Part shown: piece by piece, positions 6,001 to 9,000 of the stretch
Numbering within the stretch: position 1 is the stretch's first letter
Layout of the letters: every line of letters starts with the position of its first letter
Made by a program: the position numbers
From: a virus
Taxonomy: Duplodnaviria > Heunggongvirae > Uroviricota > Caudoviricetes
Length of the DNA: 53,480 nt
Direction: 5' to 3' (one strand)
Virus record (IMG/VR): IMGVR_UViG_648028025_000004

Positions 6001-9000
6001 TCGCGTTCTTCTTTCTCTGCAAGCCATATACAATGGCGAAATTCCTTTTCCTCTTTCGTTTCCTGCGGTAGCGACATTATCCGATCGTAGTTTTTTCTGA
6101 ATTTATCCAGCACCTCCGATACGGAATTGCCGGAACAGCGGCGCGCGTCATCCGCACCATACAGAGGCGCTGGCATAATTAAATCCTTATTTTTCTAAAT
6201 CAGAATGGGATGGAATCGTCGTATACAGGAGTGTTCTGCTGGTTACTACTTTGCTGCTGCGGGCCATTTCCTGAAGCTGCAAATCCAATCTTTGCATTCA
6301 GTAATTCAAGAGTGATTGATTGACCATTTTGCCCCTGATAAACATCAACCCTGATGTTTTCTCCGGTAATTTCCACAATGCCACCTTCAACAAGAACACT
6401 ACGGTAGTAATCCGCTTGCGCTCCCGGCTTGGCAAATACAACGGCGCTGTAGTTTGTCCATTCTTTCTTTTTTGTCTGGCGATCGTAATACTGAACGCCA
6501 GCACGGATGTTGAATCCGATATTTTCCCCGGTCTGAAACTCTCTTGCGGGCTTGTTTAGTCTTACAGTAATCGAATGTGCCATTAAGCAGCAGCTCCTTC
6601 TAATTCGTCTCGTCTGATGTTGTAAACGTCCTGCGCTTTGTGCTGCTCCGGTGTGCCTTCGAGCATCTTCCACGCTTTGGCGAACGCCTGTTTAAGCTCT
6701 TCTACGGTGTTTTTCTGCATTGCTGCGTCAGTGAATGCTTTTAGAACCTGTTCAGGTGTAGGTGATGGTTTTGATTGCTTTGCTGCTGCGTTCTGCTGAT
6801 GTTTATGCTCGTCGGTATCTGCATCTTTCGCATCATCAATGCCGAATAAACCATTGAGGCAATACTTGCGTGCATAAGAGCTTGTAGCTCCCGTAACTTG
6901 TGCAGAATCCATTCCTTTCTTGCTTTCTTCCTCTCGTGCAAGAGCGGTTGCCGTATGACTGTTTTCGCCATCGGTAATAGTTGCCGTGGCTTTCACATAA
7001 TACCGATCACCAATCAACACAACTTCATCGCTGATTGATAAAAACAGGCCATTCAGTAACGGCTTAACGCCTTCAAGAATATCTTCGCAGCTTCTGTATT
7101 TATATTTGCCGAATGAGTTGTACTGATTCTTTGGCGCGTTCAGATTCTCCTGAATAGCTGCCAGTCTTGCGTAAAATTCTTTGCTCATATGATTGTTCTC
7201 AGAATGGACACGGCCCAAGGAAATAACGCTGATTTAATACTTCGACTCGGGACAAATTAAGGCATACCCGCATTCCTTCGCGGTCACCATTATGGCGATA
7301 CCAGAGAGCTTTCTGAGGTAGCCTGAGTTTAACGGACACTCCTTCCTGAAATAGAATGGCATCAGAAGGAGCTAATAATGAGCAGAAAAACCCAACGTTA
7401 CTCTAAAGAGTTCAAAGCCGAAGCTGTCAGAACGGTTCTTGAAAATCAACTTTCGATCAGTGAAGGCGCTTCCCGATTATCTCTTCCTGAAGGCACTTTA
7501 GGACAATGGGTTACCGCCGCCAGAAAAGGGCTCGGTACTCCTGGTTCCCGCACGGTGGCTGAACTGGAATCTGAAATTCTGCAACTGCGTAAGGCGTTAA
7601 ATGAAGCTCGCCTTGAGCGAGATATATTAAAAAAAGCAACAGCGTATTTTGCACAGGAGTCGCTGAAAAATACGCGTTAATCGAACAATGGCGACAACAA
7701 TTTCCCATTGAAGCGATGTGTCAGGTATTTGGTGTATCCAGGAGCGGTTATTACAACTGGGTACAGCATGAACCCTCAGACAGAAAACAAAGTGATGAGC
7801 GGCTAAAACTGGAGATTAAGGTGGCACATATCCGCACTCGCGAAACATATGGAACCCGGCGGCTCCAGACGGAGCTGGCAGAGAATGGCATCATCGTTGG
7901 TCGTGACCGACTGGCACGTCTTCGTAAGGAGCTAAGGCTACGCTGTAAGCAGAAACGCAAGTTCAGAGCGACTACGAACTCGAACCACAATCTGCCAGTT
8001 GCGCCAAATCTGCTGAACCAGACGTTCGCTCCTACAGCACCAAATCAGGTCTGGGTGGCGGACCTGACGTATGTTGCCACACAGGAGGGATGGTTGTACC
8101 TCGCTGGCATCAAAGATGTTTATACGTGCGAAATTGTCGGCTACGCCATGGGAGAGCGCATGACAAAAGAGCTGACAGGTAAAGCTCTGTTTATGGCGCT
8201 CAGGAGCCAGCGCCCACCTGCCGGGCTAATCCACCACTCTGATCGAGGTTCACAGTACTGCGCATACGATTACCGGGTCATACAGGAGCAGTTTGGTCTG
8301 AAAACATCAATGTCGCGTAAAGGTAACTGTTACGACAACGCTCCGATGGAAAGCTTCTGGGGAACGCTGAAAAATGAGAGCCTGAGCCACTATCGTTTTA
8401 ATAACCGGGATGAAGCCATCTCAGTAATACGGGAATACATTGAGATTTTCTACAATCGTCAGCGTCGTCACTCTCGTCTGGGGAATATCTCCCCGGCAGC
8501 CTTCAGGGAAAAATATCATCAGATGGCTGCTTAAAAAAAGAACAAATGGTAGTGTCCGCTATTGCCAGTACACCTCATTCTGCGTGTACATGCGCCTCTG
8601 TAACTTGCTCTCCTTCACTGTGGTTGCAAGTGACATGAATATCTCCTTCGTTACCGATTAATTCTTTCATCTGACGAATGAATTCTTCGTCTGACCAGTT
8701 ATCTGTAAAACTCATTTCCTGCGATAACACGGAAGGTTGATAGCTGATTTCATCGCTTTATTTGCTTCAAGCCACATTTTTGAATCACCAATAAATCGGG
8801 CTATTACTGCCTTGTTCTGTGCAGCACGAAGCATCTGGTGATTGATGGCTATTTCATTGCGCATAATAAGACCTCAACTCTTTTCCATCCGTCACGTAAT
8901 TTACGGGTGATTCGTTCAAGTAAAGATTCATTTAATTGGAAGGCACCCATGCGAGCGCCTCCCGCGATTGCGTAAATCATGGGTGGTTCCTTATGTTGGT

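Follow-up and report, generated by a model that had tools for sequence, protein, structure and literature searches.

IS600 insertion in the overlap of two predicted small genes between kil and erf of a decayed attλ prophage in Escherichia coli O26:H11

The window analysed here, the whole 53,480-nt stretch of the IMG/VR record IMGVR_UViG_648028025_000004 (Caudoviricetes), carries, in a lambdoid prophage, a complete copy of the insertion sequence (IS) IS600; it lies between kil and erf, genes of the prophage's early-left (recombination) module. It is very likely that this copy hit the overlap of two small open reading frames (ORFs), named here ORF A and ORF B, in an attλ prophage of E. coli O26:H11 that was already decayed and promoter-less, and that the event was most likely neutral. 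The insertion itself is an ordinary and already annotated one. An earlier reading of the locus, made without database searches (the sequence-only reading), had proposed that an IS600-like element splits one small ORF of ambiguous frame and cuts erf off from its promoter; the results below bear out the insertion, assign the disruption to ORF B, and leave the promoter argument without an object.

The IS600 copy is intact and occupies 7314..8577 (+), in agreement with the 1264-bp IS3-family element proposed by the sequence-only reading. The terminal inverted repeats with their TG...CA ends (TGAGGT...CGGACACT) are imperfect and agree at 20 of the first 29 positions, and an A7G slippery run (AAAAAAAG) lies at 7629-7636 in orfA. 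The NCBI annotation pipeline PGAP calls a "programmed frameshift" in the joined transposase coding sequence of an identical copy, and the copies that it annotates as 'IS3-like element IS600 family transposase' are 100% identical to this one over 1264 nt. These names and identities assign the element to IS600 of the IS3 family. IS600 belongs to the IS3 group of that family and was first described from Shigella sonnei; the element in the window is like it in length, repeats, frameshift, rve DDE domain and 3-bp target-site duplication (TSD). There is no difference in the element itself, only the insertion site being specific to the 4-5 complete O26-type genomes that share it, and the copy is probably active.

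The TTC duplication that had been claimed is found on both sides of IS600, and the empty sites carry a single TTC. A 3-bp repeat alone has a chance of 1 in 64, and the empty site is the decisive evidence. When the element and one TTC are removed, 734 nt of the healed sequence are 100% identical to four Stx1a phages, and the same 734 nt are 100% identical in at least 25 complete genomes of E. coli that make Shiga toxin (STEC); with strain E2865 the identity is 100% over 1334 nt. Because a true empty site exists, the insertion is a genuine transposition, and no argument from chance is needed for the duplication. Among 5,426 complete E. coli genomes, only 4-5 have the filled junction. In RM8426, 2012C-4606 and 12689, which are independent complete genomes, it is 100% identical in a single aligned piece, while the match in 2013C-3252 consists of two joined pieces and that in strain 6629 shows 95.8% identity. 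An assembly artefact was thus rejected, since the identical junction recurs in several independent closed genomes.

The rejoined flanks had been predicted to restore an ORF of 52-56 aa, and the healed sequence in fact contains two: ORF A (MSFTDNWSDEEFIRQMKELIGNEGDIHVTCNHSEGEQVTEAHVHAESSLVSP) of 52 aa, which matches phrog_2123 over its full length (hidden Markov model (HMM) E=1.8e-41), and ORF B (MSLATTVKESKLQRRMYTQKALWYRHNGDREGMRVCLNLSRVEVLNQRYFLGPCPF) of 56 aa, which matches phrog_1723 over its full length (HMM E=9.4e-36). The healed interval corresponds to 8715..8581 joined to 7313..7199 on the minus strand, and the two ORFs overlap by 80 nt. ORF A begins at an ATG (8715) that shares bases with the stop codon of kil (ATGA); ORF B lies in the +1 frame, starts 79 nt past the ORF A ATG and stops 10 nt before erf. 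The ORF B ATG is nearly invariant among homologs and has its own AAGGAG ahead, the bases of which also encode residues NEGDI of ORF A. IS600 splits ORF B at codons 19/20; in ORF A it falls after codon 46, and the loss is confined to six residues (SSLVSP) of an unconstrained tail. A small ORF is thus split next to a gene that is translationally coupled to kil, as the sequence-only reading had it, but the coupled gene is ORF A and the split one, ORF B, is not coupled to kil. In the filled site, the left inverted repeat supplies a GTG (7339) that opens a hybrid 46-aa ORF (7199-7339, minus strand) that runs into the last 37 codons of ORF B, and no outward promoter was predicted for it.

To which frame the insertion matters can be judged from homologs. 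About 300 homologous loci were gathered and reduced to 184 distinct interval sequences, and ORF B is intact in essentially all of them; ORF A is found only in the E. coli/Shigella/Salmonella-type subset. ORF B is also intact in loci of 45-66% identity that lack ORF A, where it is ATGA-coupled to the upstream gene. We estimated the ratio of nonsynonymous to synonymous polymorphism (pN/pS) by pooling pairwise comparisons over 118 distinct colinear sequences irrespective of their kinship. In ORF A codons 2-26, before the start of ORF B, pN/pS is 0.40 in frame A and 1.41 and 1.82 in the off-frames. In the overlap, where IS600 lies, it rises to 2.53 in frame A versus 0.33 in frame B (off-frame 1.15), and in the part that belongs to ORF B only it is 0.29 in frame B and 0.89 and 1.40 in the off-frames. 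By these ratios, both ORF A and ORF B are genuine genes that overlap, and purifying selection switches from frame A, over about its first 26 codons, to frame B at the ORF B ATG. The frame is therefore not ambiguous as had been supposed: because frame B is under selection at the insertion point and frame A is not, the gene truly disrupted is ORF B.

The same two ORFs occur in well-known phages. The kil-erf small ORFs of HK97 (gp42/gp42.1), HK022, Sf6 and CUS-3 belong to phrog_2123 and phrog_1723, are true homologs with 82-100% identity, and have the same position and the same overlap as here. The small-ORF calls differ by annotation: both are called in CUS-3, PGAP calls only ORF A, and HK97 has a single gp42.1 of 83 aa. 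The halves parted by IS600 in the window are fused in HK97 (locus L001, 1652-1903), where two 1-nt insertions lying a few bases from the IS600 site join ORF A(1-43) to ORF B(20-56). Natural in-frame fusions of this kind, 81-83 aa long and with several different junctions, include the proteins P0007, P0017, P0018, P0022, P0029, P0045 and P0049; several database proteins of 81-82 aa have junctions other than that of HK97. It could thus be argued that ORF A and ORF B are one gene of about 82 aa, expressed by a +1 frameshift or split recently, and that IS600 breaks one protein mid-way; like HK97 gp42.1, the 81-82 aa proteins join the ORF A N-terminus to the ORF B C-terminus and retain exactly both of the selected parts. 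However, fusions make up rare clusters only, a +1 frameshift signal could not be identified, ORF B has its nearly invariant ATG after AAGGAG, and the first 26 codons of frame B are already constrained. Moreover, divergent phages carry ORF B without ORF A, ATGA-coupled to the upstream gene, and the N-terminal module of ORF A exists without ORF B in 35-aa forms. The start signals of ORF B, the constraint on its codons 1-26 and the A-only and B-only forms indicate that separate genes are the normal state, and we consider the single-gene interpretation extremely unlikely.

The operon that received IS600 had apparently lost its promoter before. In the stretch 10107-10709, upstream of the tolA-like gene, the 5' part of sieB (from 10229) is fused at about 10450 to a 5'-truncated cII (...TERSEQIQMEF). 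The Stx1a phage LC744181, whose cIII-erf module is 100% identical, has at this point a 4.7-kb segment that includes N, cro, cI and a kinase module; in the window its place is taken by 343 nt of sieB sequence unrelated to it. A tblastn search for N, cI and cro across the 53-kb window, with λ queries, found nothing, and no functional λ-type pL operon, with pL/OL, nutL and N upstream of cIII-kil, was recognized here. By this comparison, the deletion that left the sieB/cII scar removed N, nutL, pL, cI, cro and pR. A promoter scan gave fewer sites than in shuffled sequence, with no minus-strand site ahead of kil; among its hits were the promoter of IS600 orfA and an oop-like pair of promoter and terminator, and an Rfam scan of 6000-11500 found nothing. 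The same immunity-region deletion is present in E2865 and 98E11, strains without this IS600, so that the deletion would be older than the insertion; the strain distribution of both events points to this order. Since N, pL, cI and cro were already lost and the prophage is otherwise decayed, the insertion was most likely selectively neutral.

This bears directly on the proposal that IS600 separates erf and the gene of the single-strand DNA-binding (SSB)-like protein from their upstream promoter, which is moot when N, nutL, pL, cI and cro are absent and their deletion predates the IS. It is established λ genetics that antitermination by N suppresses the polarity of an IS within an early operon. 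The classical IS insertions in the λ early operon likewise lie in a pL-type operon upstream of recombination genes, but N and pL are absent here and neither polarity nor suppression applies.

The alternative in which the split ORF corresponds to arf (accessory recombination function) of P22, and IS600 is truly polar in severing erf and the SSB-like gene from pL, draws on several likenesses. P22 has the order c3-kil-arf-erf-abc1-abc2, with a 47-aa arf that overlaps both neighbours, and the c3/cIII-kil-small ORF-erf order in the window agrees with it. P22 Arf (PF17585, phrog_2445), a cofactor of Erf with a molecular function stated to be unknown (PMC12315714), likewise fills the slot between kil and the recombinase gene, is small and overlaps its neighbours. 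BLASTP of ORF A against Arf aligned only a 7-residue motif, W/F-S-D-E-E-F-I (including the SDEEFI shared by both), located N-terminally at matching places; an ORF A homolog goes under the name 'accessory recombination function protein' in one database source, and PHROGs labels both ORFs 'recombinase', a label for which no test that we ran gave support. In contrast, ORF A, ORF B and HK97 gp42.1 had no match to PF17585 in Pfam searches at E<=1, where the P22 Arf control scored 1.9e-35 (121 bits), and hhalign against Arf gave probabilities of 1.9% (ORF A) and 0.2% (ORF B). Membership of either ORF in the Arf family was thus rejected. The two systems also differ in their PHROGs and in that the slot holds two overlapping genes here and one in P22. 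ORF A, the ORF with the motif, is hardly touched by IS600, and with pL, N, cI and cro absent there was no promoter to lose. The P22-type order put forward by the sequence-only reading therefore stands, without homology to Arf; by these comparisons the likeness of the kil-erf slot to P22 is positional, plus the 7-residue motif in ORF A, and a polar insertion in an arf counterpart is quite unlikely.

The sequence of events that best explains the locus would then be as follows. The IS600 DDE transposase, made by -1 frameshifting, would have inserted the element into a TTC, with the usual 3-bp duplication, in the 80-nt ORF A/ORF B overlap between kil and erf of an O26:H11 lambdoid prophage. The insertion splits ORF B and trims the tail of ORF A, and transcription and translation coming from upstream would no longer be coupled to erf, the SSB-like gene and abc2; erf translation may depend on that of ORF B. 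It would represent one more step of erosion in a lineage with amplified IS600.

It is also evident that this is not the only IS600 insertion at the locus. Seven independent insertions were found in the cIII-erf segment of STEC prophages (loci including L005, L006, L303, L304 and L305; Table 1), all of the 100%-identical 1264-bp IS600, each with its own 3-bp TSD, and in both orientations. Six of the seven sites fall within about 245 bp of healed sequence, in two different prophages. By our own estimate, such clustering would be far above the uniform expectation at about 10-20 copies per 5.7-Mb genome. As for its cause, no common target motif was found, IR-like sequence (resembling the inverted repeats) is no more frequent than in shuffles, and there is only mild AT-richness; no report of an IS600 target preference was found in the literature searched. 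Target preference, selection and ascertainment are the candidate explanations.

If kil-erf hits by IS600 have been repeatedly selected, with silencing of ORF B, of erf or of kil-region expression as the benefit, the insertion would be adaptive. The six sites, with differing TSDs and both orientations in two prophages, all strike ORF B, its ribosome-binding site or sequence upstream of ORF B, and neither a target motif nor IR-like sequence accounts for them. Against this, the operon of the attλ prophage is already without promoter and antiterminator, each insertion is limited to a few genomes, and a local pile-up of IS600 elsewhere, at five sites in iee in O121, suggests regional target preference (PMC9397093). 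IS600 is amplified in STEC, and the IS-excision enhancer (IEE) can excise it in IEE-positive STEC (PMC9397093). The IS600 in lacZ of STEC O121:H19 shares the element, the host background and the antisense orientation to the target operon with the insertion in the window, but it has a clear phenotype that is reversible via IEE, whereas the target operon here is already promoter-less (PMC9397093). Recurrent selection is thus a very unlikely cause of this insertion.

Several points nevertheless limit the preferred explanation or speak against it. The identity of the element comes from PGAP names and 100%-identical copies; the pN/pS ratios are pairwise sums pooled over related sequences; kil, the two small ORFs and erf may yet be expressed from a promoter that is weak or cryptic; and six independent insertions in about 245 bp could mean selection, not neutrality.

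All phage genes at 7199-8866 and around it are on the minus strand, and the range singled out by the sequence-only reading has the second small ORF's stop (7199) at one end and the start of kil at the other. The features are listed in Table 1. The Kil-like assignment withstood the similarity search, with 72.6 bits against PF06301 (gathering cut-off 27.6); kil follows cIII with a 16-nt overlap, and this HMM match together with its position in the early-left operon identifies it as kil, the inhibition of FtsZ being a prediction only. Erf scored 151.6 bits against PF04404 (gathering cut-off 25). The SSB-like protein matches the 'single strand DNA binding protein' phrog_44, without a Pfam match at 0.01 and without a PDB sequence match. 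IS600 lies upstream of erf, as stated before, at a distance not of 10-100 bp but of 125 nt from the erf ATG (7188); an upstream in-frame TTG (7218) is 95 nt from the IS end.

Table 1. Features of the IS600 insertion, of its surroundings and of the other IS600 insertions in the cIII-erf segment (positions in the window, or window-equivalent where stated).
Feature	Position	Strand	Remarks
IS600 left inverted repeat (IRL)	~7314-7342		
IS600 right inverted repeat (IRR)	~8549-8577		
TTC, left TSD copy	7311..7313		single TTC in empty sites
TTC, right TSD copy	8578..8580		single TTC in empty sites
transposase OrfAB	7378..8534	+	Pfam domains; PGAP joined coding sequence in identical copy
orfA	7378-7680	+	HTH_Tnp_1, 1.5e-20
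orfB	runs to 8534	+	HTH_21, 1.5e-13; rve, 3.2e-26
ORF A remnant (46 aa; intact 52 aa)	8575..8715	-	WP_000010963.1; stop TGA from IS end
AAGGAG Shine-Dalgarno sequence of ORF B	8643..8648	-	6 nt upstream of ATG, inside ORF A; read directly
ORF B 5' fragment (codons 1-19 + duplicated GAA)	8578..8636	-	
ORF B 3' fragment (codons 20-56 + stop)	7199..7313	-	phrog_1723; stops 10 nt before erf ATG
cIII	8849..8980	-	PF02061, E=4e-15; PGAP annotation
kil (50 aa)	8712..8864	-	PF06301, E=1.7e-20; phrog_2055, 2e-34
erf (single-strand annealing protein)	6583..7188	-	PF04404, E=2.1e-44; PGAP annotation
SSB-like gene	6200..6583	-	phrog_44, E=2.7e-27; C-terminus DDSIPF
abc2-type anti-RecBCD gene	5883..6176	-	PGAP annotation of identical sequence
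strong intrinsic-terminator-like hairpin, then T-run	9993..10014	-	upstream of tolA-like gene
sieB 5' fragment fused (~10450) to 5'-truncated cII	10229..10709	+	deletion scar; PGAP partial genes abut
oop-like promoter	10767-10739		survives
oop-like terminator	10685-10655		survives
ISEc22 (IS66 family)	30474-32809		in place of head genes, between truncated S49 protease gene and truncated tail U gene; RM8426 colinearity
nleH	45775-46656		type III secretion effector; RM8426 colinearity
cif	46880-47707		type III secretion effector; RM8426 colinearity
ISCro1-like IS66 element	48677-51292		among effector genes at right end; RM8426 colinearity
espJ	52827-53480		type III secretion effector; RM8426 colinearity
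IS600 insertion	7240 (window-equivalent)	-	TSD TAC
IS600 insertion	7264 (window-equivalent)	-	TSD GCA
IS600 insertion	7275 (window-equivalent)	-	TSD TTC
IS600 insertion (this window)	7313	+	TSD TTC
IS600 insertion, between ORF B Shine-Dalgarno sequence and ATG	8642 (window-equivalent)	-	TSD TAT
IS600 insertion, ORF A codon 4	8705 (window-equivalent)	+	TSD CTG
IS600 insertion, cIII codon 2	8977 (window-equivalent)	+	TSD AAT

The prophage sits at attλ (ybhC...ybhB/bioA), as it does in the E. coli O26 strain RM8426. The first 16.5 kb of the window are 100% identical to the attλ prophage of RM8426, and from 16254 on the identity is 99.997%. Structurally the two differ only in where a 1311-bp IS3-family element, presumably of the IS629/IS1203 type, is found: it lies at 14006-15316 in the window, in a hypothetical gene of the nin region (PGAP: AL1L pseudoknot), and in a tolA-like gene at window-equivalent ~9363 in RM8426. 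Decay is further seen in the frameshifted O gene, a Q fragment and other IS copies. The possibility of a Stx prophage was rejected: the window is an attλ prophage with nleH, cif and espJ, and Stx1a phages share only the early-left module with it.

ORF B can be followed beyond these prophages. Its homologs were sought with divergent queries too, since the original query returned only identical viral copies; a species-dereplicated genome scan gave 8 loci, and a search of 1.84 billion cluster representatives gave 21 proteins, about 10 of them full-length (54-60 aa). The family is small and limited to enterobacterial lambdoid and P22-like phages. ORF B is mostly downstream of Kil, and in divergent loci (L177-L221) it lies 1-16 nt upstream of a recombinase gene, which encodes one of two ERF subtypes, a Rad52_Rad22 (Sak-type) or an AAA_24 (Sak4-type) protein; in the most divergent of these loci its upstream ATGA-coupled partner is a 35-aa peptide without a Pfam match. 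In the ORF A variants P0001 and P0016, the EFIRQMK heptad within the conserved N-terminal motif is duplicated in tandem once or twice. The AlphaFold model of ORF B is a two-helix hairpin with helices at residues 7-27 and 30-51 (predicted local distance difference test score, pLDDT, 92), and fold searches of PDB and BFVD returned only generic helical hairpins, all at E>0.3. No report on the function of gp42/gp42.1 was found in the literature searched. With moderate to low confidence, these distributions suggest that ORF B serves the recombination module as a small accessory protein, that its translation would feed into the recombinase gene and, with the same confidence, that it would have no specificity for Erf.

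The insertion as such is of small import, being a routine event in a degraded, effector-carrying prophage with no promoter left to disturb. The overlapping ORF A/ORF B pair, the tie of ORF B to every recombinase type and the clustering of IS600 are worth following up. That the kil-erf gap of phages of the HK97, HK022, Sf6 and CUS-3 type holds two overlapping genes is useful for annotation, since PGAP frequently has a call for just one of the pair and the label 'recombinase' given to both in PHROGs is a mislabel. A larger reading, that the kil-recombinase interval is a genuine IS600 hotspot and ORF B a recombinase-family-independent companion overprinted by an Arf-like ORF A in one lineage, is unlikely on present evidence. 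Since ORF B goes with the recombinase slot whatever the recombinase family, it is nonetheless a candidate accessory factor. If the clustering did reflect selection or a locus-linked DNA structure, the role of ORF B in phage recombination modules would be that of a general accessory factor, independent of the recombinase family. The IS600-prone interval could also be used as a marker for strain typing and to test how IS600 chooses its targets.

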